Assembly: GCA_046350855.1 (NCBI GenBank)
Contig: JAXLZM010000001.1
Span: 153,420 to 217,419 of the forward strand
Reading direction: 5' to 3'
Length of the DNA: 64,000 nt
Origin: Candidatus Anderseniibacteriota bacterium
Lineage (GTDB): Bacteria; Patescibacteriota; JAUYIX01
The notes under the pieces were generated by a model. It did no database searches. It saw only the letters and a list, made by a program, of their open reading frames with translations, and was not told where the DNA came from. Positions 3,576-46,176 of the stretch are shown piece by piece. A program made the translations under genes and the position numbers. Numbering within the stretch: position 1 is the first letter of the stretch; the number at the start of each line of letters is the position of its first letter.

Positions 3576-3971
3576 TTAGCTGGTTGGAGGTAAAGGAGGA
3601 AACCCGCCAACCGGACTCAACAGCAGGACACTGGGGAAGATCTCGCTTTTAAATGTACCTCCTAGATGTGCCTTACGCGTGACAAACAAATGTCAGCTCT
3701 CATCGATCGGCCAAAGGGGCCTCTCGACCAGAGGAGCACACCACCGTAGCAAAAAACCAAGCGTGTGTCAACGATGGCTCAGTTAAGCCGACTTACCCCT
3801 AGCATGGCTGAACCACGCCACGTTTTTTTGGCTTTTTGCAGCCAAAAGCTACCTTGACTGAGAGACTATTTTATGCTAGCTTGGTTGGTCCAGTTCTAGC
3901 TCGCTCTCTCCCAACCTATTCCCCTATTCACCGCCCTACTGACTTGCCGGAGCACCGGCAGAAAGGTCGCC

Positions 3972-4715
3972 ATGAAGACGTTTGCCCATCTAATGCTGGC
4001 CCTAATCATCGGCTGCACCTGTACCTGGACGGCCAAGGCCGACAGCACGCTCGAGAAGGCCGCGCGCTCGACGCGCAAGTTCGTCCAGGAGCGACACGAG
4101 GAGCACAAGGAGCTCCTCAAGTCTCCACGACTGATCACGGTTCCTCAGGGACCGGAGTGCTACGACTATCCCCTGATCTACTTTCCGGAGGGCAGTCAGC
4201 GCACCAAGCGCGCCTACTACATCACGCGTCACTACCAGGCTTGGTCCCCCGGCTACGGGTATCGCCACTCGCGACACTACAGCGACTTCACCTTCCGCTT
4301 ACCACATTTTATCGTCCTGCTGGATGGCCGGCCGTACTGCGAGGTGGAGCGGAGTTTCGACTGCCAGTTCATCCTTGGTGACAGCTACTACAGCAGCGGA
4401 GCGTTTCGCCGCGACTACATCGTCGAGCGCTCGCACCAGATCTGGGATCAGGCCGCAGGTGCCAGTGAGCCCGAGTGGACCATCCTGCCCGGAGCGGTAC
4501 GACGCGACGTTCGGCCAAACTTACTGTTTGGTCCGGTCGACGCCTTGACGACGGCTTCCAAGCGCGCCGTCTGCCACAAGCACAACAACAGCGAAAAGTG
4601 CGTGGTGACTTTTGGTCCACTGACCGGAGGGATGCTCCGAGAAGTCGGAACCGTGACCGGTCCCGATGGACAGGAGCATACGGCCTATTGCCCTGAGGGG
4701 AATCGCTGCGAGTGA
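3972..4715 (+). CDS. Secreted Cys-rich protein (signal peptide; YC-x-C motifs)
   Basis: N-terminal signal peptide MKTFAHLMLALIIGCTCTWTAKA; motifs RPYCEVERSFDC and TAYCPEGNRCE. Confidence 0.6.
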   Translation: MKTFAHLMLALIIGCTCTWTAKADSTLEKAARSTRKFVQERHEEHKELLKSPRLITVPQGPECYDYPLIYFPEGSQRTKRAYYITRHYQAWSPGYGYRHSRHYSDFTFRLPHFIVLLDGRPYCEVERSFDCQFILGDSYYSSGAFRRDYIVERSHQIWDQAAGASEPEWTILPGAVRRDVRPNLLFGPVDALTTASKRAVCHKHNNSEKCVVTFGPLTGGMLREVGTVTGPDGQEHTAYCPEGNRCE

Positions 4716-4870
4716 TCCATGTATCACTCGTCGACGCTCCAGCTGACTACGGTCGGCTGGAGCTTTTCTTTATCTTGACAAAGACCAAGAATACGTGCAT
4801 CCTGTTCAGTCCCGAAAATTTCGAACGTTCATCTCGATACAATCGATATAACCGACTACCAGGAGGTGCT

Positions 4871-5524
4871 ATGTCCCGACGCAGCAGAGCGATGGTGTTC
4901 TGCCTGATTGCACAACTCAGCAACATGATTGGTCAAGCGGGCGAAAATCCCCTCAAGTCGTTGGAGATCAAGTACGAGCGTCACAAGCTCAGGGAGAACC
5001 GCGAAGAAGGCGCCGAACACGACATCGACTGTACTATCCGCAAGCGTGCGGAGGGTGCCTACTGCGTAGTCCATGAGACCACGGATCCTACGCGCTGCCC
5101 GACCCTCGCGCACGGCAACTGGAAAGGTGACGCCTGGACCACGTGCGTGCCGACGATCGATGACAAAGGGTTTGCCTACTGCGCCGAGCATGACCTCTAC
5201 ACGTGCTACCTGCTGCGATACTGGAGTCCCGAGTCGGACAGTGATTCGGCGATCGACCATGCGCCGGCAGAATGCAAAAAGGTCAACAGGGATGGCCGAC
5301 CCTACTGCGCTAAGCACGACACTTTTGCGTGTTTTACGCCGCGATTGGTTTGTCGGTTGCATCCGGGCAAACTGTGCGGCGTAGTGCGGGCTGGCTCACG
5401 AGAGAGCCCAGGAATGGTCCTCGTTGAGGACGGTGAAGAGTCCAAGCAAATCCCCGTATTGAGCTTGCTTGCGCCTAACGCTGCTACCCGCCACACCGCG
5501 TATATCTGGGTTGAACCACGGTAA
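4871..5524 (+). CDS. Cys-rich repeat protein with three (A/P)YC-x-x-HD/HE motifs; paralog-like to the upstream gene
   Basis: AGGAGG RBS 5 nt before ATG at 4871; repeats GAYCVVHETTDPTRC, FAYCAEHDLYTCY, RPYCAKHDTFACF. Confidence 0.6.
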   Translation: MSRRSRAMVFCLIAQLSNMIGQAGENPLKSLEIKYERHKLRENREEGAEHDIDCTIRKRAEGAYCVVHETTDPTRCPTLAHGNWKGDAWTTCVPTIDDKGFAYCAEHDLYTCYLLRYWSPESDSDSAIDHAPAECKKVNRDGRPYCAKHDTFACFTPRLVCRLHPGKLCGVVRAGSRESPGMVLVEDGEESKQIPVLSLLAPNAATRHTAYIWVEPR

Positions 5525-6146: not shown

Positions 6147-9100
6147 ATGGAGCCTACGCATGTTTCTGCACTTGAGGCTCTAGTTTCTTCCGCCTACAAA
6201 AAAGCAACAAAGAAGCCCCAACGCCCCGCCGGAAAAGCCCTGCGCCTGGACGTGGGTGGCGTTACGGAAGCCGCTAGATCCTATCTCATCGCAGGGACCC
6301 CAAGTTTACGTCGGGGGCCCGTTTTGATCGTGACCAGCGATAACGAGCACGCCCAAATCTGGGAGAACGAGTTGCGTTTTTGGCTCAAGCGGTTGAACAC
6401 CGATACAAAGAGTGGCGATGGCGCTCAAGCCACGGCCGACCCCTTAGTCATCCGTTATGACGAACTCCCCGAGTCCGAGCAGCTCTCACAAGTACCAAGT
6501 TTACGTCGCTACAAAAATCTAGGGGTAAGTGGCCGTATGCTTGCCAACGAGTGGGCTTTTTTATCGTGCCGGTGCGTGGATTTGTCGAGCGACTCCCGGC
6601 GGTCGAGCGCTTTAAGGCCATGACCGTGCGGCTCTCGGTTGGTGACACGGCCAGCCAGTCTAAGGTCTTGCATGATCTTGAGGAGATTGGATACGAGCCA
6701 GCCGATGTCGCAACTACGGTTGGTACCTTTGCCCGGCGGGGTGAACTGTTGGAAGTCTACTCACCCCATGAGACGCATCCGGTACGGATTACGTTTGCGG
6801 GTTCGACCGTAGAGTCGATCGTGCATTTTGATATCGAAACTAAGAAACCGTTGGCTGAGACCAGCCAAGCTGCATCCGGTTCAACCACTGGCGTACAACA
6901 AATGCGCGCGGTACCGCTCAAGTTGCTGATGAGCCAGGGGCGGTTGATAAAATACTTGGGCGATCCGAGCAAATGGTCGGTCGTGATCGATGACCCAGAC
7001 GACCTCAAAGCCTCGATCGATCCGCTCGGTCTCAAAAATGAGCAGGAGTGGCGAGGACTGACTAAAGAGTTGGCCACGGCCGGCATGATTACCTTCCACG
7101 CTTTTTTGGAAGAGAAAACGGCCGACACGCACTTATTTAACTTTACGGTTCCTCCTTTGTTTAGAGGGCACTTGCCGAGTTTGCGTGAAGAGATCAAAGA
7201 GTTCCATCGTAAAAAATACGCTATCCGTGTGCTGACCGGTGATGCGGCCAAAATCCGCGCGTCATTAGATAGCTCGGTTAACTATGTCGACGTCGAGATG
7301 GTCTCCGGCAGTTTGCGGGAGAACTTAGCCGGCTTTAGAGATGGCACCGGTAAGTTGCTGGTCCTGACCGACCGAGAGATTTACGGACCAGAGTCGGTTC
7401 AGCCGGCAAAAATGCGCAAGGCTAAGCGTTTTGATCAGGCCTTTATTGGAGAACTCGAGCCGGGGCATTACGTGGTGCACGTCGATCACGGTATCGGGCG
7501 CTTTTTGGGAATGGTGCACAATTTGCTGTCCGGGATCGAGAAGGAATATTTTGTACTGCAGTACGCTGAGGGCGATCGGTTGTACGTGCCGGTCGAGGCG
7601 GCCGAGAAGTTGTCCCGTTATATAGGAGCGGCTAATCCGGTGATTCACCGCTTGTCCGAGACCTCTTGGATGCAAATCCGAGCGCAGCTTAAAGAGTCGA
7701 CCGAGAAGTTGGCTAAGGAGTTGCTGCAGTTGTATGCGGAGCGGCAGGTACGAGGTGGCATGCAGTTTAAGCCCGAACAAGCCATGGAGCGCGAGTTTGC
7801 TAAGACGTTTCCGTATGAGGAGACGCCGGATCAATTACGGGCTTGGCACGAGATTCAGTTGGATATGCAACGGCCGCGACCAATGGACCGACTCTTGGTC
7901 GGGTGATGTGGGCTTTGGCAAAACCGAGGTGGCTATGCGCACGTTGTTTAAGGCCGCGGTCAACGGCAAGCAAGCCGCGATCCTGGCTCCGACCACGATT
8001 TTGGCGGACCAGCACTACAAGAATATTACGAAACGCTTTTCGAGTTTCCCGTTTAGCGTGGGAGCACTGTCGCGCTTTCAAAGTCCCAAGGAGCAGCGCG
8101 AGACGATTGCCAAGCTGCGGGCTCGGCACGATCGATGTGGTCGTGGGCACGCACCGGCTACTCTCCAAGGATATTGAGTTTAAGGATCTAGGGAGTGGTG
8201 GTGGTGGACGAGGAGCAGCGCTTTGGGGTGGAACACAAAGAGCGCCTCAAAAAATTACGCTCTAATGTACACGTGCTTGTCACTTGTCAGCTACCCCGAT
8301 CCCGCGGACGTTGCAGTTCTCCCTGTCTGGTATCCGCGATATCTCAACAATCGAGACTCCCCCGCCCGGACGCTACCCGATCGAGACCAAAGTGGCCGTG
8401 TATGACGATCGCGAGATCAAAGCGGCCCTTGAGTTTGAACTCAAACGCGGTGGCCAGGCCTATATTTTGCACAATCGCGTGGAGACGATTGGTACCTTTG
8501 CCAAAAAAATTGCCAGCTTGGTGCCCAAGGCGCGGGTACGCGTGGGTCACGGCCAGCTCCCCGAGACCGAACTCGCCAGCGTCATGGAGGATTTTTACAA
8601 TCGTAAATACGACGTGCTTGTGGCCTCGACCATTATCGAGAACGGTCTTGATATCCCGAGCGTCAACACGATCATCGTGGACCAATCAACAAACTTTGGC
8701 TTGTCACAGTTGTACCAGTTGCGTGGTCGCATCGGTCGCGGCAACCAACGCGCCTACGCCTACCTCTTTTATAACCGCCAGGATCTTAAAGGTCCCGCTC
8801 GCTCTCGCTTGTTAGCGCTGCTCGAGGCTACCGAGCTTGGTTCAGGCTTCCAGATTGCATTGCGTGACTTGGAGTTGCGTGGTGCCGGTAACTTGCTGGG
8901 CGGCGAGCAGTCTGGTCAGATCAAGTCGGTCGGTCTCAATATGTATCTGCGCTTACTCCATCGCGCGGTTCAGGAGATTAAGACGGGTGTTAAGGAGACC
9001 CCGATTTTGGATGTGACCATTGATGTTCCTCTGCCGGCGTATTTCCCGGTTACCTATGTGCCGGATGAACGCGAACGCCTCTCGCTCTACCAGTTTTTGG

Positions 9101-23915: not shown

Positions 23916-25454
23916 TTATTTTTTCTCAGCTTCGATCTTTGCAAAGAGATTATCCGGCCGCGTCACGGCAGAACCCGGATGCAACGGTTGGGCCCGCTGC
24001 TCTACTAAGGTGCCGGCGGGCAACTCAAAAATCCCAGTAATCCGCTCCGCAGTCGCAGGGATAATCGGCTGCACCTGCAAGCCCACGATCTTGACCGCCT
24101 CGAGCAAGGTGCGCAAAACACTTGCCAACTTTTTGGAATCGGACTTAGCAAGCACCCACGGTTTGGACTTGTCGACAAATTGGTTGGCCCAGGCCACAAA
24201 GCGGTTGAGCGCACTGATCGCATCATGGAAACGCAGCTCCTCGATCGCAGCATCAAACTCTTTGATAAATTTCTCGGCCTCGGGGACATAGACCGGGTCC
24301 GGCTTAGCATCCGGCACCTTTCCGTCGGCAAATTTTTGCGTCATGGTAGTGACGCGTGCAACCAAGTTACCGATCCCGTTGGCAAGCTCGGAGTTGTAGC
24401 GTTCAACCAGACGTGACTCGCTATACTCACCATCCTGCGCAAACGGAATTTCGGCCAGCAAAAAATAGCGGAACGCCTCGAGGCCGTAGCGCTTGATCAC
24501 GGCAAATGGATCGACCACGTTGCCGAGGGACTTACTCATCTTTTTACCCTCGTTGCCGATAAAGCCGTGACTAAAGAGCCGATGCGGCAGGGCCAAGCGA
24601 GCCGACTTGAGCATGGCCGGCCAGAGCGCGGCATGGAACCGCAAAATATCCTTACCGATAATCTGCACGTCCGCGGGCCAGAGTCGCTCAAAGGTCGGCG
24701 TGTCCTGCAAAAAGCCACAGCCCGTCAAATAGTTGGTCAACGCATCAAACCAAACGTACATCACGTGTGACGGGTCGCCCGGCACTTCGATCCCCCAGGC
24801 CAACTTCTCCTTAGGCCGGCTGATGCTCACGTCCTCTAATCCTCGCTTACTTACAAGTGCATAAATCTCATTAAACCGCCCCTCCGGCTGAACAAACTGT
24901 TTGTGTTCATCCAGGTGCTGCTTGAGCCAGGCGGTATAGCGCGAGAGGGCAAAAAAATAGTTTTCTTCTTCGACGACCTCGGGCTTTGTGCCGTGAATGC
25001 AGCAGGTGCCGGCCTTGCCGGTCGGGTCGCCGTCTTTGCGGATCTCGCTCGGGGTCAAAAATGCCTCGCACCCGACACAGTAGAGGCCTTTGTACTTCTT
25101 TTTATAGATGTCACCCGCGGCGTCGGCGCGCTTCCAGATTTCTTGCGCAACTTTTTTGTGAGTCTCGTCGCTCGTCCGAACAAATTGATCTGCACTAATC
25201 TCAAGCGCACCCATCAAGTCCTTAAAGGACTGAGAGATTTCATCGGTAAATTCTTGGGGTTGCTTGCCAGCTTTTTGGGCGGCGCGGGCGATTTTGGTGC
25301 CATGTTCATCCGTGCCGGTGATAAAACGTACCTCGCTCCCCTTGAGACGGTGGTAGCGCGCCAACACATCCGCCGCCAAAAACTCAAAAGCATGGCCGAT
25401 ATGCGGCTTTGCGTTTACGTATGCAATTGCGGTTGTGACGGTAAACTTCGACAT
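23916..25454 (-). CDS. metG: Methionyl-tRNA synthetase
   Basis: AYVNAKPHIGHA (HIGH) and KMSKSLGN motifs; Cys4 knuckle. Confidence 0.9.
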   Translation of the reverse strand: MSKFTVTTAIAYVNAKPHIGHAFEFLAADVLARYHRLKGSEVRFITGTDEHGTKIARAAQKAGKQPQEFTDEISQSFKDLMGALEISADQFVRTSDETHKKVAQEIWKRADAAGDIYKKKYKGLYCVGCEAFLTPSEIRKDGDPTGKAGTCCIHGTKPEVVEEENYFFALSRYTAWLKQHLDEHKQFVQPEGRFNEIYALVSKRGLEDVSISRPKEKLAWGIEVPGDPSHVMYVWFDALTNYLTGCGFLQDTPTFERLWPADVQIIGKDILRFHAALWPAMLKSARLALPHRLFSHGFIGNEGKKMSKSLGNVVDPFAVIKRYGLEAFRYFLLAEIPFAQDGEYSESRLVERYNSELANGIGNLVARVTTMTQKFADGKVPDAKPDPVYVPEAEKFIKEFDAAIEELRFHDAISALNRFVAWANQFVDKSKPWVLAKSDSKKLASVLRTLLEAVKIVGLQVQPIIPATAERITGIFELPAGTLVEQRAQPLHPGSAVTRPDNLFAKIEAEKK

Positions 25455-26202: not shown

Positions 26203-26799
26203 TTATCTGGTGGGGGTGATCTTGGCGGCGTAGCCGGGGAGAACGTGGTCCTCCTCCGCCTCTGTCTCGGGCGGATGCCGGACATAGCACCGCAGCTTGT
26301 GCATCGCCTCGGAGTAGGCTGCTTGAACGACCTTGATGGGCTTGCCGAACTTGCCGGCAACGAGCTGGAGGGGCCAATCATGACCGTCCACCATGCCGAG
26401 GTGAAAGCGCAAGACGCCGGACTCAAAGTTGGTGAGCCCGATTTCTTTGAGCTCGCGGTCTGAGAGACCCGGACGCTTCTCGCGGAGACGTTCGACGATT
26501 GCGCGGGCTCGAAGCACTTCGTGCGTCATACCCTGCATTCCGATGTAGACGTCTAGGGTATCGCCCGCAAAGACTTCGCAGAGGATGCCGAGCTCTTCGG
26601 CATCGAGCTGCCAGAGCTTTTCGACTAACGCTTCGCGCGTGGGTACAGGCCGCTTGACAAACGAGCTAGGCACGTCTTCACGGACATTGCTTGACTCCGT
26701 TGAGATCCGAATCGCTTCCAGCAGCGTGTCGATGTTGAGCTCTGGTCGTTCGACCAGGACACTGCCGATGATTTCTGGAGGAACCGTGTAGAGTGACAT
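26203..26799 (-). CDS. Hypothetical protein
   Basis: 198-aa ORF with no recognised motif. Confidence 0.45.
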   Translation of the reverse strand: MSLYTVPPEIIGSVLVERPELNIDTLLEAIRISTESSNVREDVPSSFVKRPVPTREALVEKLWQLDAEELGILCEVFAGDTLDVYIGMQGMTHEVLRARAIVERLREKRPGLSDRELKEIGLTNFESGVLRFHLGMVDGHDWPLQLVAGKFGKPIKVVQAAYSEAMHKLRCYVRHPPETEAEEDHVLPGYAAKITPTR

Positions 26800-26970
26800 C
26801 CGTTCACCTCCCCTCTTGTAAAGCTACGATCCAGCACTGCTGGCTCTCTTTTAGCACAAAAAAGCCTCTCTGTCAACTAGAACGAAATGCCTCAAAAATC
26901 GAGCATGAAAAGAACATTGGTATCCAACCGGTTAATTGAAATTTACCTTAGCTGGCGATAAAATATCTCT

Positions 26971-27792
26971 ATGCCAGCTCGTTGGACTTTAGCTGAAGAA
27001 AAGAAACTGTATAGGGGGTTACATTTCTTATACGTCAAGAAAAATAAGACCATTGGTGAGATAGCGCATATCTTGAATTTAGATCCGACTTCCGTATATG
27101 ACCGTCTTGTGCGACTAAATATCCCGAGATCACGCGCGTCAAAAACAAGATACAATAATCAACGTACTGACGTCGGGATACCAACAACGTATTCACCCGA
27201 GCTTGCAGAATTTATCGGCATTCTCTTAGGAGATGGGCACCTAACATCAACTCAGGTCACCGTTACGTTGGGTAAAAAAGAAAAAAGATACGCAGAGTAT
27301 GTTGCAGACTTAATTAAATCGATATTTAGAATATACCCTGCGATAATTAAAAATCTGGATGGGGATCTGACCGTATACTTTGGATCAACAGCTGTGGTGA
27401 GGTGGTTTCTCGAAATGGGGTTGGTCCACAACAAAGTGCGCTCTCAGGTGGACGTACCGGCGTGGTGTTTTTCTAAGCGCACGTTCATTCGCTCGGTATT
27501 GCGCGGCTTGATTGATACCGATGGTTCGGTGTATACCTTACGTCACGGCGTACAAATATCATTCTGTAATCGATCGTACCCACTCCTAAAATCTGCGCGT
27601 TTGATGATGCAGCAATTAGGTTTAAGACCATCCAAGATTAGTTGTTACAAGGTATATCTGACACGTCAAAAAGATCTGGGCAACTATCTAAGACAGGTCG
27701 GGTTCAGTAACAGAAAACATTTGAAGCGTCTCCTCGTTTTTTCTCAGTTGCATGGGCAGGTACTGGAAGCGGCCAAACCGGACAGACTGTAA
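26971..27792 (+). mobile_element. Free-standing double-motif LAGLIDADG homing-endonuclease gene with N-terminal HTH
   Basis: Motifs LAEFIGILLGDGHL and LRGLIDTDGSV; HTH GEIAHILNLDPTSVYDRLVRL; ORF markedly AT-rich compared with its flanks; 3' end overlaps tRNA-Tyr. Confidence 0.8.
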
Positions 27793-27841
27793 ATCTGTTG
27801 GCTTCACGCCTTCGGGGGTTCGAATCCCTCCCTGCCCACCA
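27754..27841 (+). tRNA. tRNA-Tyr (anticodon GUA), long variable arm, CCA encoded
   Basis: Acceptor GGGCAGG/CCTGCCC; anticodon stem ACAGA/TCTGT with loop CUGUAAA; T-loop GGTTCGAATCC; 3' ACCA. Confidence 0.85.
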
Positions 27842-27844
27842 GTG

Positions 27845-28219
27845 TTATACCCAAACGCGCGCTTTATTTTTGATTTCTTTTTCGCGAAAAGCCTCTTCTA
27901 GATCGAGGTCGTACTTGTTGGCGATCGCGCAGAGATAAATCAAAATGTCGGCCAGCTCTTCTTTGACCGAGCCGACCTTAGAAGTGGGATCGATCTTAAT
28001 GGTCTTCTCCATTTTGCGCACGGCTTTAAAGAGCTCGCCAATTTCTTCTCCGAGCAAGAGACACTTTTGGAGCGCGGTCTCATTGCTGAATCCGCGTTGA
28101 CGCTCGAGTTCACTGACGTAGCGTTGCACCTCAGCCAGAGTTGGATTGGACGGTAGTTCAAGCACCATCGCTTTGGCTTTCTTTAAGTAACTGGACAAAG
28201 CGCTGCTTAAGTTTGGCAA
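27845..28219 (-). CDS. MazG-like nucleotide pyrophosphohydrolase
   Basis: EEIGELFKAVRK...EELADILIYL MazG/NTP-PPase helices. Confidence 0.7.
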   Translation of the reverse strand: MPNLSSALSSYLKKAKAMVLELPSNPTLAEVQRYVSELERQRGFSNETALQKCLLLGEEIGELFKAVRKMEKTIKIDPTSKVGSVKEELADILIYLCAIANKYDLDLEEAFREKEIKNKARVWV

Positions 28220-28715
28220 GCTTGGGGTTAATCACCGCTTGGCAGTAGGGCTGCTCTTTATTTTTGCGGTAGTAATCACGGTGATAGTCCTCAGCCTCGT
28301 AAAAGGTCTCGAACGGCTTGATCTCGGTGGTCACTTTGACCCCGCTCTTTTTGAGTTCGGCCACAAACTGCTCGGACTCTTGTTGCTGCTCTGGGGTCGT
28401 CACAAAAATGGCCGAGCGATACTGGGTACCCACGTCATTGCCTTGGCGGTTGAGAGTAGAGGGGTCATGCGTGGCAAAAAAGACCGTCAACAAATCGCGG
28501 TACGCGATCTCGCGCGGATCAAATTCGATGCGGGTCGCCTCGGCATGACCGGTTCTGCCAGAACACACCTGCTCGTAGGTTGGATTAGGGACCGTGCCAC
28601 CCGTGTAGCCGGGCATAACCTTGAGCACGCCTCTCAGCGATTGGAAAATCGCCTCGGTGCACCAAAAACAGCCTCCTGCAAAGATGGCAATTTCTCGGGC
28701 GCGCGTGACTGGCAT
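28158..28715 (-). CDS. msrA: Peptide methionine sulfoxide reductase A
   Basis: GGCFWC active-site motif. Confidence 0.9.
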   Translation of the reverse strand: MPVTRAREIAIFAGGCFWCTEAIFQSLRGVLKVMPGYTGGTVPNPTYEQVCSGRTGHAEATRIEFDPREIAYRDLLTVFFATHDPSTLNRQGNDVGTQYRSAIFVTTPEQQQESEQFVAELKKSGVKVTTEIKPFETFYEAEDYHRDYYRKNKEQPYCQAVINPKLAKLKQRFVQLLKESQSDGA

Positions 28716-29992
28716 TACCGAATACTAACAGTTCGATAGTGTCGTTTACCAACCCGAATCGTGAATTTTTTGGGTGGGATTTTGTCGGTCAACGAGACCG
28801 TTTTCCAGCCGTTCTCCGTCTTGAGGTGGATAGCTTTTTGCTTGAGGAGTCGTCCTGCTGCTGCCGCTGAGGCAGAACCAGGCAGATCGAGCGCCTTGAT
28901 CACGGCGATCCACGAGCTGACGTCTTTACGCGTAAGCATCACCTCTGGAATCTTAAGCTCGTCCGTCTTTTTGCGTACGACCGCTGTATTAAAATATTCC
29001 TCAGCTCTGTCCGCGTCTTTGACGCTGTTGAGGTCAGCCACGATGATACGTGCAAGGGCACGCTTGAGGTGCATGGGGTTGAGTTCACCCGACTTGAGGG
29101 CACGCGCTAATGGATTCCATTGCGCATCGCGGATGTCCGTCAACAATGTAAAGTACTGCTCGAGCAGCGCATCCGGGATCCGCATCAGCTTGCCGAACAT
29201 CTCTTCTGGCTCTGCCTCGAGCGCAATATAGTTATCTTGCGACTTGGACATTTTGAGGCCCTGACCGCTTGTACCGATGAGGATGTCGGTGGTGAGGGCA
29301 GCCTCGGGCGCGTGCCCATTAAGCTCCATCACTCGGGCCGAGTCATAAAAATTGAGCAGCTGATCGTCGCCGCCGATCTCGAGCTCGGTTTTGAGCTCGA
29401 TCGAGTCGATCCCGGTTAGACTGGCGTAGAGGAGTTCCACGCGAGTGACCGACTCACGCTTACGAAAATCCTCCCGCTGCATAGCGCTCGAGACCGTGAG
29501 GCCCCGAATCATTTTAAGAAAGTTGGCCAGCGAGAGCTTGTCGAGCCATTCGCTATTACGCCGCACGCTAGCCTGTTTGAGATCGATAAGGCGACCGGCC
29601 TGTTGCTTGTAGGTTTTGAGGTTACGCTCGATCTCTTGCTCGGTCAGCATTGGACGCTCGGCCACGCGACCGGCCGGATCACCAATCCGCGCGGTAAAAT
29701 CGCCGATGACCAGCGTGACCTGGTGCCCCATTTTTTGGAGCCGCCTACATAGCACCAACGGAATGGCATGACCCAGGTGCAACTCACGGCCGGTCGCGTC
29801 GATCCCAAATTTAACGCGTAGTCCACGTCGAGCTTTTTTAGCCCGCTCGAGGTAACGCAATAGTCGATCCTCGCCGGCGATATGTTTGGCCCGCTCTTTA
29901 AGTAAGACAAGTTGTTGGGCCGGAGTCATTGCTGTGAGGTCGGGATGCTCCAACAAATCCTGTTCGAGGGCACGTAAATCGATCTGGGACAT
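28715..29992 (-). CDS. tyrS: Tyrosyl-tRNA synthetase (class I, with S4-like C-terminus)
   Basis: GIDATGRELHLGH and KMSKS motifs; C-terminal S4 domain. Start placed at MSQIDLRAL (29992); the ORF track extends to 30172. Confidence 0.8.
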   Translation of the reverse strand: MSQIDLRALEQDLLEHPDLTAMTPAQQLVLLKERAKHIAGEDRLLRYLERAKKARRGLRVKFGIDATGRELHLGHAIPLVLCRRLQKMGHQVTLVIGDFTARIGDPAGRVAERPMLTEQEIERNLKTYKQQAGRLIDLKQASVRRNSEWLDKLSLANFLKMIRGLTVSSAMQREDFRKRESVTRVELLYASLTGIDSIELKTELEIGGDDQLLNFYDSARVMELNGHAPEAALTTDILIGTSGQGLKMSKSQDNYIALEAEPEEMFGKLMRIPDALLEQYFTLLTDIRDAQWNPLARALKSGELNPMHLKRALARIIVADLNSVKDADRAEEYFNTAVVRKKTDELKIPEVMLTRKDVSSWIAVIKALDLPGSASAAAAGRLLKQKAIHLKTENGWKTVSLTDKIPPKKFTIRVGKRHYRTVSIR

Positions 29993-30081
29993 GCGCGTAC
30001 GATAGCAAATGGACAGATAGCTGTCAGCCGCACTCGAGCACTGAGATTGCGTACCTGGCGCTGCAGGGGTAGAGTCGCGGT

Positions 30082-30516
30082 ATGTTTTTTGGGGTGCATT
30101 TATTGACGGGCGCGGCGATCGGTGCGGTCGTACCAGACCTCCCGGCCGCAACCGGCCTGGGCCTGCTCTCACATTACGCCATCGACCATCTCCCCCACTG
30201 GAACTACCTCCCCAAGCACCGCAGCAAGTGGGAAGATAGCTGGAAAATGGCCCTCGAGCCGCTCATTAGTATTCCGGTTTTTTTGGGGCTGGCCTGGTGG
30301 GCCCACTGGGACGCTCATATTTTAGTCCCGGCTTTTGCCGCGATTATCCCCGACTTGCTCGAGTCCGCCCAGTATTTTTTGCGCTCGCGGGTACTCAACT
30401 GGCACTCGCGTTGGCACCACTTTGGTCACTGGCACGCCCGCTTTACAGCCAGCCTACCTATCTTGATTAGCCTGCTCCTACTCGTCGGTTGGTTGCTGCC
30501 CTGGGGCCACCGCTAG
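30082..30516 (+). CDS. His/Trp-rich integral membrane protein
   Basis: Four TM segments; HxxxxH-rich. Confidence 0.45.
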   Translation: MFFGVHLLTGAAIGAVVPDLPAATGLGLLSHYAIDHLPHWNYLPKHRSKWEDSWKMALEPLISIPVFLGLAWWAHWDAHILVPAFAAIIPDLLESAQYFLRSRVLNWHSRWHHFGHWHARFTASLPILISLLLLVGWLLPWGHR

Positions 30517-45780: not shown

Positions 45781-46176
45781 GGGGATGATCGGCTTCGAGA
45801 GCGATCGTGTGTTGTTCGGGCGTGTACGAGTGGGATGTGCCACTCGCAAATCAATCGCATCACTCAACAAATGCTAAGTCATTTGTAAGCAAAGCGAGCG
45901 ACTACGTTCGTAGCCTCTCCGCTCTGCCAGCCGTTGCCTAACTGTAGGTAACAGCCATCTCCCGTAGGCTCCCCCGTGGTTTACGATCAGAGGTGTTATC
46001 TTTGCGGGGTTGGTGTACAGCAGGTTTCTGGCTGAACATCGAGACTTTGTGAAACTCGCGTCGCCATTTTTTGCCGCACTTTGAGCGGTGACGTCAGATA
46101 CCAAGCGCGGAGAGTACACGTGGACGACCAACATGCTGTTAGCTCCACGCGGGTTCGATTCCCGCCATCTCCACCC
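45781..46176 (+). ncRNA. ssrA: tmRNA (SsrA), standard one-piece form
   Basis: 5' GGGGAUGAUCGGCUUCGAGAGCGAU matches the tmRNA 5' consensus. 3' ACGCGGGUUCGAUUCCCGCCAUCUCCACC is a tRNA-like T-arm and acceptor. A G3:U70 pair is present. Putative tag ORF ends ...ALPAVA-UAA near 45945. Confidence 0.85.

Follow-up and report, generated by a model that had tools for sequence, protein, structure and literature searches.

The window analysed here, a 64,000-nt stretch of a metagenome-assembled genome of Candidatus Andersenbacteria (Patescibacteria, or Candidate Phyla Radiation, CPR), contains an open reading frame (ORF) for a predicted helix-turn-helix (HTH)-LAGLIDADG homing endonuclease, which runs into the tRNA-Tyr(GUA) gene that follows it (coordinates of all features are collected in Table 1). 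The ORF is without a stop codon of its own: the final 13 codons are read from tRNA sequence, and the terminating TAA (27790-27792) corresponds to U35, A36 and A37 of the tRNA-Tyr anticodon loop. Upstream of the start codon lie 171 nt of non-coding DNA (26800-26970). The GC content is 0.40-0.46 across 26800-27850 and 0.52-0.60 in the flanks. An Rfam search revealed no scoring intron family between positions 24000 and 31000 at E<=1. An intron- or intein-encoded endonuclease is ruled out by the promoter and start codon that the ORF has for itself, by the uninterrupted tRNA, by the stand-alone character of the ORF and by the lack of an intron family. The layout proposed in a preliminary description of this DNA, i.e., an AT-rich gene behind an AT-rich non-coding stretch, located in neither an intron nor an intein and overlapping the 5' half of an intact tRNA-Tyr with its last nucleotides, was thus borne out.

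Both LAGLIDADG motifs attributed to the ORF in that description were located. Motif 1, LAEFIGILLGDGHL, occupies residues 78-91 (LLGDG at 85-89), and motif 2, RGLIDTDGSV, occupies residues 178-187 (IDTDG at 181-185). The protein matches Pfam LAGLIDADG_3 with E=3.7e-12, and there is a weak match to LAGLIDADG_2 over motif 1. An AlphaFold2 (AF2) model built on 24 homologues (predicted local distance difference test score, pLDDT, 90.2) consists of an N-terminal three-helix HTH, a linker, and a two-domain, single-chain LAGLIDADG core. The top Foldseek matches of the model were the TliVMA intein endonuclease domain, I-Tsp061I (E=1.7e-9; template modelling, TM, score 0.72) and many chains of I-DmoI, with structures of PI-SceI and WhiA lower in the list. 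The model and these matches together identify a pseudo-dimeric alpha-beta-beta-alpha-beta-beta-alpha fold. At the level of sequence, similarity to archaeal single-chain LAGLIDADG and intein-borne enzymes was found with E of about 0.03. The HTH fold suggested earlier agrees with the three modelled helices, while the label of sigma-70 region 4 given to it is not established, because Pfam types the HTH weakly (HTH_28, E=0.057; weak HTH matches at residues 20-49).

In an alignment of 194 family members, catalytic Asp88 is present in all members except a 5'-truncated copy, and catalytic Asp184 and Lys155 are present in every one. The window copy matches the consensus at all 33 near-invariant positions tabulated, these three included. 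A loss of the catalytic acids, which the preliminary description had named as a sign of domestication, was therefore not found. Because both catalytic aspartates, Lys155 and the other near-invariant positions are retained, the window protein looks like an active nuclease and not like a WhiA-like derivative.

The protein database contains at least 267 full-length relatives of the window protein at 50-59% identity, nearly all of them 258-273 aa long, and in a search of 5.8 billion proteins the nearest relative other than itself was 59% identical. When one genome per species was scanned, at least 460 species genomes (a lower bound) were found to encode relatives, nearly all of them Patescibacteria of many named lineages. 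Among 2.9 million viral contigs of IMG/VR there was no close relative, the best match being 32% identical and limited to the LAGLIDADG core; a phage vector is therefore not supported. When clustered at 50% identity, the relatives associated with tRNA-Tyr (the Tyr clade; loci L001-L076) fall into about 20 clusters. The total at E<=1e-30 is 469 clusters, most with the lengths typical of a sister clade found at tRNA-Ser, which is described below.

The position of the gene is the same throughout the Tyr clade. In every locus with room, a tRNA-Tyr(GTA) on the same strand starts within a range that extends from 39 nt ahead of the ORF stop to 14 nt beyond it; in the sole apparent exception, L063, the tRNA-Tyr is present and was missed by ARAGORN. 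Decayed copies (L072, L075 and L076) also still adjoin tRNA-Tyr. Out of 67 family ORFs, 55 terminate inside tRNA-Tyr, 29 of them at the identical anticodon-derived stop, and the reading frame relative to the tRNA varies among the 67 loci. The overlap seen in the window is therefore no chance oddity. A tRNA-Thr(UGU) gene is located on the same strand 3-172 nt upstream in 19 of 76 loci, and a tRNA-Thr(GGU) gene just downstream of tRNA-Tyr in 11 of 76 (both are present in 10), so that in tRNA-Thr-flanked loci the endonuclease gene lies inside a conserved tRNA cluster of the thrU-tyrU-thrT type. The usual upstream tRNA-Thr is missing at the window locus. No description of tRNA-flanking LAGLIDADG genes in CPR was found in the literature.

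To survey how this position is occupied, contigs were drawn with ribosomal protein S2 of locus L004, blind to endonuclease content; 12 contigs were read and 11 were informative. The surveyed genomes are Yanofskybacteria-like and share an identical gene order: rpsB, tsf, a tetratricopeptide repeat (TPR) gene, tRNA-Thr(UGU), the slot in question, and tRNA-Tyr. Four states of the slot were observed (Table 1). It can be empty, in which case tRNA-Tyr is intact and has its own promoter; it can contain an intact LAGLIDADG gene; it can contain a remnant of such a gene; and it can contain an unrelated nuclease gene. Across these genomes, which have 80-89% identical S2 proteins, the four states are interleaved. 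The unrelated product is a Cys-rich protein that in its C-terminal half resembles families of phage resolvases/endonucleases (PHROG 9019, E=4e-17) and carries the PD-(D/E)xK-like motif YTPDF...EIK; it is probably a second free-standing homing endonuclease that competes for the slot. Just upstream of tRNA-Tyr, L240 and L238 share ca. 15 nt; these nucleotides form the 3' end of the LAGLIDADG ORF in L238. We therefore read L240 as a case in which the second nuclease has replaced the LAGLIDADG gene. Empty junctions between tRNA-Thr and tRNA-Tyr, the sites for which the preliminary description had advised a search in related genomes, thus exist side by side with a remnant and a replacement, and the ORF is not common to all relatives.

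A comparison of loci L004 and L236 revealed lateral transfer. At the DNA level, rpsB and tsf of the two loci are 70 and 73% identical, respectively, and tRNA-Thr and tRNA-Trp are 63 and 61% identical. Identity rises to 85% in the spacer between tRNA-Thr and the ATG and to 92% in the endonuclease gene (246/264 identical residues in the protein), while tRNA-Tyr is identical at all aligned positions. Judged from these identities, the cassette has recently been transferred between lineages together with tRNA-Tyr. Another pair of loci, L004 and L070, is discordant in that their S2 proteins are 72% identical and their endonucleases 44%.

Presence and absence, decay, replacement and transfer make up the life cycle of a homing element and therefore argue strongly against an indispensable host function. 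We conclude that the window ORF is probably a member of a large patescibacterial family of mobile, free-standing, single-chain LAGLIDADG homing-endonuclease genes that occupy a fixed slot immediately 5' of tRNA-Tyr. The LAGLIDADG fold with both aspartates and the HTH, the tRNA-Tyr address, the pattern of slot states and the co-transfer of tRNA-Tyr are the established part of this conclusion. The selfish free-standing endonuclease tied to a tRNA gene as its site, as envisaged in the preliminary description, is upheld by the family placement, the conserved aspartates and the slot polymorphism. A domesticated regulator of the WhiA type is not supported: the catalytic aspartates are invariant, the HTH is N-terminal, and the gene is absent from five of 11 related loci.

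Table 1. Coordinates of features in the window, and states of the slot between tRNA-Thr and tRNA-Tyr in the surveyed contigs
Sequence	Feature	Position	Strand	Remark
Window	Degenerate tRNA-Tyr 5'-like fragment (A*), GGTATCCAACCGGTTAATTGAAA	26919..26941	+	Contains -35 box; family modal position
Window	Sigma-70-type promoter	26936..26964	+	-35 TTGAAA 26936-41, 17-nt spacer, -10 TAAAAT 26959-64; scan 10/12
Window	HTH-LAGLIDADG homing endonuclease gene	26971..27792	+	273 aa
Window	HTH, residues 7-48	26989-27114	+	AF2 model
Window	Single-chain LAGLIDADG core, residues 76-260	27196-27750	+	AF2 model
Window	Catalytic Asp88 codon (motif 1, LLGDG)	27232..27234	+	D in 193/194 family members
Window	Catalytic Asp184 codon (motif 2, IDTDG)	27520..27522	+	D in 194/194 family members
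Window	tRNA-Tyr(GUA), class II, encoded CCA, intact	27754..27841	+	ARAGORN; Rfam tRNA 48.6 bits
Window	ORF/tRNA overlap, 39 nt	27754..27792	+	ORF and ARAGORN coordinates
L235, L239, L241, L242, L243	Slot empty			tRNA-Thr to tRNA-Tyr gap 3-33 nt
L236, L237, L244	Slot with intact LAGLIDADG gene			L236 and L237 have the same sequence
L238	Slot with remnant			353-nt gap; upstream motif, -10 box, 45 N-terminal codons and C-terminal end kept; LAGLIDADG core deleted
L234	Slot with unrelated nuclease	8187-8969		242-260 aa Cys-rich protein (L234 and L240), Zn-finger/resolvase-like
L240	Slot with unrelated nuclease	8111-8839		As for L234

The endonuclease gene is preceded by a promoter whose -10 box, in the window, ends 6 nt ahead of the ATG. 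In 71 loci of the family the -10 box is found at positions -12 to -7 from the ATG (T in 49/71, A in 54/71, and T in 53/71), and no Shine-Dalgarno-like G run was seen across the same loci. Because the -10 box is located just ahead of the ATG and a Shine-Dalgarno sequence is missing, the endonuclease mRNA appears to be leaderless. The promoter scan of the window revealed no promoter-like site between the ORF interior and tRNA-Tyr, and because no such site lies just upstream of the tRNA, tRNA-Tyr is probably co-transcribed with the ORF.

In many loci the -10 box is preceded by the motif GGTAGAGTGGTCAATTGCA, the TTGCAA within it being the -35 box. The 16-mer core, AGAGTGGTCAATTGCA, was found with <=4 mismatches in 38 of 72 upstream regions, versus nine of 1440 control windows, and its modal start is at -46. 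In 31 of 76 loci the upstream region can be aligned, above the 95th percentile of controls, to tRNA-Tyr from approximately positions 1-12 through 22-26. In L033 the fragment is identical at 25/25 positions to tRNA-Tyr(1-25) of another lineage, and differs from the tRNA-Tyr of L033 itself. The possibility that the fragment is a copy of the resident tRNA was rejected: alignments with the own tRNA have a median z of 0.3, and fragment identity is 0.42 to the own tRNA versus 0.48 to tRNAs of other loci. By these alignments, the fragment is the 5' part of a tRNA-Tyr of a different, widely shared type. In the window, fragment A* matches the core at 10/16 positions at -46 and tRNA-Tyr(6-22) of L054 at 15/17 positions, which is borderline when taken alone. 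The core motif with <=3 mismatches had no match anywhere in the window, a generic repeat search of the window produced no significant tRNA duplicate, and a 10-nt direct repeat at 26860 and 27887 is at chance level. The duplicated partial tRNA-Tyr suspected upstream of the ORF is therefore a feature of many family members, while the window copy is too degenerate to be significant by itself.

Similar fragments are found in the sister clade, whose members are 36-40% identical to the window protein, are longer (330-370 aa) and have a longer, XRE-like HTH region; both catalytic aspartates are kept in the five members aligned. Of the 72 loci with room in a metagenome scan, 71 had the sister-clade gene directly 5' of tRNA-Ser (anticodons gct, 40; cga, 18; tga, 10; and gga, 3). 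Thirty other tRNA-Ser genes at these loci were unoccupied, as were all tRNA-Leu genes (0/6 occupied), and class II tRNA structure alone is therefore rejected as a sufficient determinant of the site. A fragment resembling tRNA-Ser(1-~19) lies at or just before the sister-clade start codon, which falls at tRNA positions 7-9; the likeness exceeds the control threshold in 24 of 47 loci. We interpret the fragments of both clades as probable fossils of a displaced tRNA 5' part that now form a component of the promoter, and the fossil fragment may also be an operator. The N-terminus of the protein may itself be tRNA-derived sequence. In both clades the opening codons are similar to a tRNA D-arm. Those of the Ser clade, ATG GCT GAA, resemble GTG GCT GAG of tRNA-Ser 7-15 (e.g., L174, L186 and L191), and the N-terminus of the Tyr clade reads M-A-x-(R/K)-W, with an invariant Trp5 (e.g., 26971-26985 in the window).

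The following mechanism is proposed. The sigma-70 promoter would start a leaderless mRNA at the ATG, the transcript would continue through tRNA-Tyr, and RNase P would free the tRNA. In window-like copies the RNase P cut would strip the stop codon from the mRNA, which might limit endonuclease levels via transfer-messenger RNA (tmRNA, encoded at 45781-46175). At tRNA-Tyr loci that lack the endonuclease, the enzyme would cut within the tRNA-Tyr gene or at its 5' edge. Repair of the break from an occupied allele would then copy the promoter, the endonuclease gene and the linked tRNA-Tyr by co-conversion, the homology arms being provided by conserved tRNA genes, namely tRNA-Tyr and, in many lineages, the tRNA-Thr upstream. 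A place outside the mature tRNA but within its transcription unit would remove the need for an intron or intein.

Several points weigh against the interpretation as a mobile homing endonuclease. Cleavage activity and the target site are inferred, as is any mechanism beyond placement and population pattern. Any target wholly within the tRNA would also be present in the intact tRNA-Tyr that adjoins the gene, which leaves the immunity of occupied alleles unexplained; possible reasons are a resistant linked tRNA allele or a site that extends across the upstream junction. The genomes with empty sites are Yanofskybacteria-like and do not include relatives of the Andersenbacteria genome of the window. 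Linkage of the gene to the two tRNA halves is about the same (Mantel r 0.20 for the 5' part versus 0.22 for the 3' part), so that travel of the gene with the tRNA 5' part alone is not supported. The protein is unusually conserved for the product of a selfish gene, and about 95% of copies are intact; mean pairwise identity in the same genomes is 0.49 for the family, 0.45 for elongation factor Ts (EF-Ts) and 0.40 for S2. Gene GC content tracks that of the host (r=0.88, slope 0.74, intercept 0.049). In a lineage that appears to read UGA as Trp, TGA codons stand at invariant Trp positions in the endonuclease genes of six low-GC loci, and likewise in the S2 genes there. Conservation, intactness, GC tracking and TGA use indicate long residence and mostly vertical descent. 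Distances between endonucleases are partly congruent with those between host proteins (Mantel r 0.24, 0.45 and 0.69), and nearest neighbours agree in 6/24, 3/21 and 5/17 cases (14/62 overall), i.e., poorly.

The same observations could be explained by a domesticated host factor that regulates or, as a nuclease, maintains the tRNA-Tyr (and tRNA-Ser) unit and is kept by host-level selection, for example an autorepressor that binds the conserved tRNA-like motif of its promoter. Besides the conservation above S2 and EF-Ts in the same genome pairs, the GC tracking and the adaptation of codons to the UGA=Trp lineage, such a role would fit the strong purifying selection over the whole length of the protein with its many invariant residues, the lack of copies on phage contigs, and the presence across phyla of a motif that lies at a fixed distance from the -10 box and is longer than a -35 box needs to be. 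However, in the unbiased survey tRNA-Tyr is intact and has a promoter of its own in the five of 11 loci that lack the gene, the same slot can hold a deletion remnant or an unrelated nuclease, the gene and tRNA-Tyr form a patch of 92-100% identity within flanks of 61-73%, and both catalytic aspartates are kept, unlike in the domesticated WhiA. We consider a host factor unlikely.

The preliminary description had noted the AT-richness of the gene and called it a plausible recent acquisition, which would imply a lower-GC donor to the window genome. In favour of this are the composition (GC content of 0.437 in the gene versus 0.550 in the flanks; 0.449 versus 0.640 at third codon positions, GC3), the demonstrable transferability of the family and, at the window locus, the lack of the usual tRNA-Thr and an ORFan as upstream neighbour. 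Yet gene GC is below that of the flanks in 74 of 79 loci, by 6.5 points on average, and the family regression predicts a GC content of about 0.46 for the window gene, close to the observed value. AT-richness is thus family-wide, and therefore does not date the insertion in the window. In addition, the heavily decayed tRNA-like fragment upstream argues for age, and because the best non-self relative is only 59% identical there is no identifiable donor. Recent acquisition in the window genome is not supported by these data, the databases containing no close relative of that genome, and we regard it as improbable.

An inactive relic, i.e., an intact ORF that no longer cuts and is kept because it is lodged between a promoter and an essential tRNA, was also considered. 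The promoter-ORF-tRNA layout would make imprecise deletions costly, and precise, repeat-mediated excision is unlikely because the resident tRNA is, in its 5' part, only ca. 42% identical to the upstream fragment. A relic would, however, be expected to show stop codons and loss of the active site, whereas the window copy retains every near-invariant position, and true relics of the family (L238, L072 and L075) look different. This explanation is very improbable.

Returning to the interpretation as a family of mobile homing endonucleases, we tentatively suggest a wider hypothesis, which is less likely to hold than the family assignment itself. The cassettes might constitute a distinct, intron- and intein-free route of persistence, whereby a promoter, a leaderless gene and the cassette's own tRNA allele take the place, across Patescibacteria, of a resident essential class II tRNA, which is tRNA-Tyr in one clade and tRNA-Ser in its sister. 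The tRNA-5' fragment ahead of the gene would be a homology arm and/or an operator, RNase P processing of a transcript whose ORF ends inside the tRNA would throttle expression by producing a non-stop mRNA, and nuclease families would compete for the slot.

The genes around the window unit are as follows. The upstream neighbour, divergently oriented at 26203-26799 (- strand), encodes a 198-aa protein with a weak match to Sigma70_r4 (E=0.066). Among 5.8 billion proteins it matches only itself and thereby reveals no close genome relatives. A methionyl-tRNA synthetase gene (23916-25454, - strand) is located 1.5 kb upstream of the endonuclease unit, and a class I Trp/Tyr-type aminoacyl-tRNA synthetase gene (28715-30172, - strand) ca. 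0.9 kb downstream of tRNA-Tyr, with MazG-like and MsrA genes in between; the closeness of synthetase genes to the tRNA-Tyr unit may be coincidental. No integrase gene was found beside the unit among these neighbours (the ORFan, MazG-like, MsrA and class I Trp/Tyr synthetase genes). A tRNA-targeting integrative element is ruled out by the lack of an adjoining integrase and by the tRNA-like fragment being a 5' and not a 3' part.

Additional observations were made at other loci. In many tRNA-Tyr genes of the Yanofskybacteria-like clade the T-loop reads GGTGCAA(A/G)TCC, with G at the near-universal U55 (L004 4778-4863, L236 8922-9005, L244 8713-8797, L239 8053-8139 and L241 7938-8022), while tRNA-Tyr of L235, L242 and the window has the canonical T-loop GGTTCGAATCC. 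A low-GC Patescibacteria lineage (L010, L015, L021, L022, L025 and L027) appears to read UGA as Trp and not as Gly (code 25). The endonuclease, S2 and EF-Ts genes contain 31 in-frame TGA codons, 21 of which align with columns occupied by Trp in other loci, and a tRNA with a UCA anticodon, close to tRNA-Trp(CCA), occupies the usual position of tRNA-Trp (L022 5206-5283, L025 5191-5264 and L027 5611-5685). No clear prior report of a UGA=Trp Patescibacteria lineage was found in the literature. L014 contains a second, distant LAGLIDADG-like ORF (7440-7958, - strand; 28-33% identity to the family), 25 nt downstream of tRNA-Leu(CAA) (7983-8067, - strand) and on the same strand, an arrangement unlike that of the Tyr and Ser clades. 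Relatives outside Patescibacteria likewise adjoin tRNA genes. In a Hadarchaeota contig (L078), a relative at 3671-4795 is followed, at about 4812-4929, by a tRNA-like gene with a possible intron, which at 28.4 bits falls just short of the Rfam threshold. In a Chloroflexia contig (L077), a relative at 3851-4657 is followed by two opposite-strand tRNA-Ser genes (4693-4885).

The usual view of homing endonucleases is that life inside conserved genes requires an intron or intein, and free-standing ones are known mainly from phages. What is new here is a chromosomal, free-standing LAGLIDADG family that adheres with nucleotide-level fidelity to the 5' edge of tRNA-Tyr or tRNA-Ser, lies within the tRNA transcription unit, often ends inside the tRNA, and has a rival nuclease in its slot. 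The pattern extends over a large part of the Candidate Phyla Radiation, and the whole cycle of invasion, decay, loss and replacement is visible, with an essential tRNA gene being co-transferred. The family is thus a natural system for the study of long-term persistence of selfish nucleases in streamlined genomes and a marker of gene flow between uncultured lineages. Its several hundred diverse clusters are a pool of meganuclease relatives whose likely targets can be guessed from the adjoining tRNA. Annotation is affected as well, since family ORFs extend into tRNA genes and sometimes carry the name WhiA.

Of known enzymes, I-Tsp061I, I-DmoI, TliVMA and PI-SceI have the fold of the window protein, with two LAGLIDADG helices that contribute one catalytic acid each. 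These enzymes are encoded in rRNA introns or inteins, where splicing restores the host gene. The window gene, in contrast, is free-standing, encodes an additional N-terminal HTH, and leaves the host gene undisrupted because it is placed just outside the mature tRNA. WhiA, the name given to family members in some sources, likewise has an HTH joined to a LAGLIDADG scaffold. In WhiA the catalytic acids have been lost and the HTH is C-terminal, whereas in the window family both aspartates are invariant and the HTH is N-terminal. Integrase-borne islands and prophages also insert at tRNA genes and leave a partial tRNA copy at one end, but they duplicate the 3' part of the tRNA via a tyrosine integrase; in the window family it is the 5' part, there is no integrase, and the cargo is a single nuclease gene of ca. 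0.8 kb.

Within CPR, LAGLIDADG genes have been described inside introns or insertion sequences of 16S and 23S rRNA genes, with a sporadic, homing-like distribution (PMC11270868); the word tRNA was not found in the main text of that paper. The host group, the enzyme superfamily and the choice of conserved RNA genes as sites are common to those genes and the window family, which differs in occupying the 5' flank of tRNA-Tyr or tRNA-Ser and in having no ribozyme. The closest functional analogue is SegB of phage T4, since both are free-standing endonuclease genes among tRNA genes. In T4, inheritance of the endonuclease drags the neighbouring tRNA gene or genes along by co-conversion (PMC2988022, PMC13096335), much as tRNA-Tyr is identical here between genomes whose other tRNAs are 61-63% identical. 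SegB is a phage-borne GIY-YIG enzyme that acts in co-infection, whereas the window family consists of single-chain LAGLIDADG proteins with an HTH, encoded by bacterial chromosomes. Unlike SegB, the family is fixed beside one specific tRNA, its ORF reads into that tRNA, and it is absent from the viral contigs searched.

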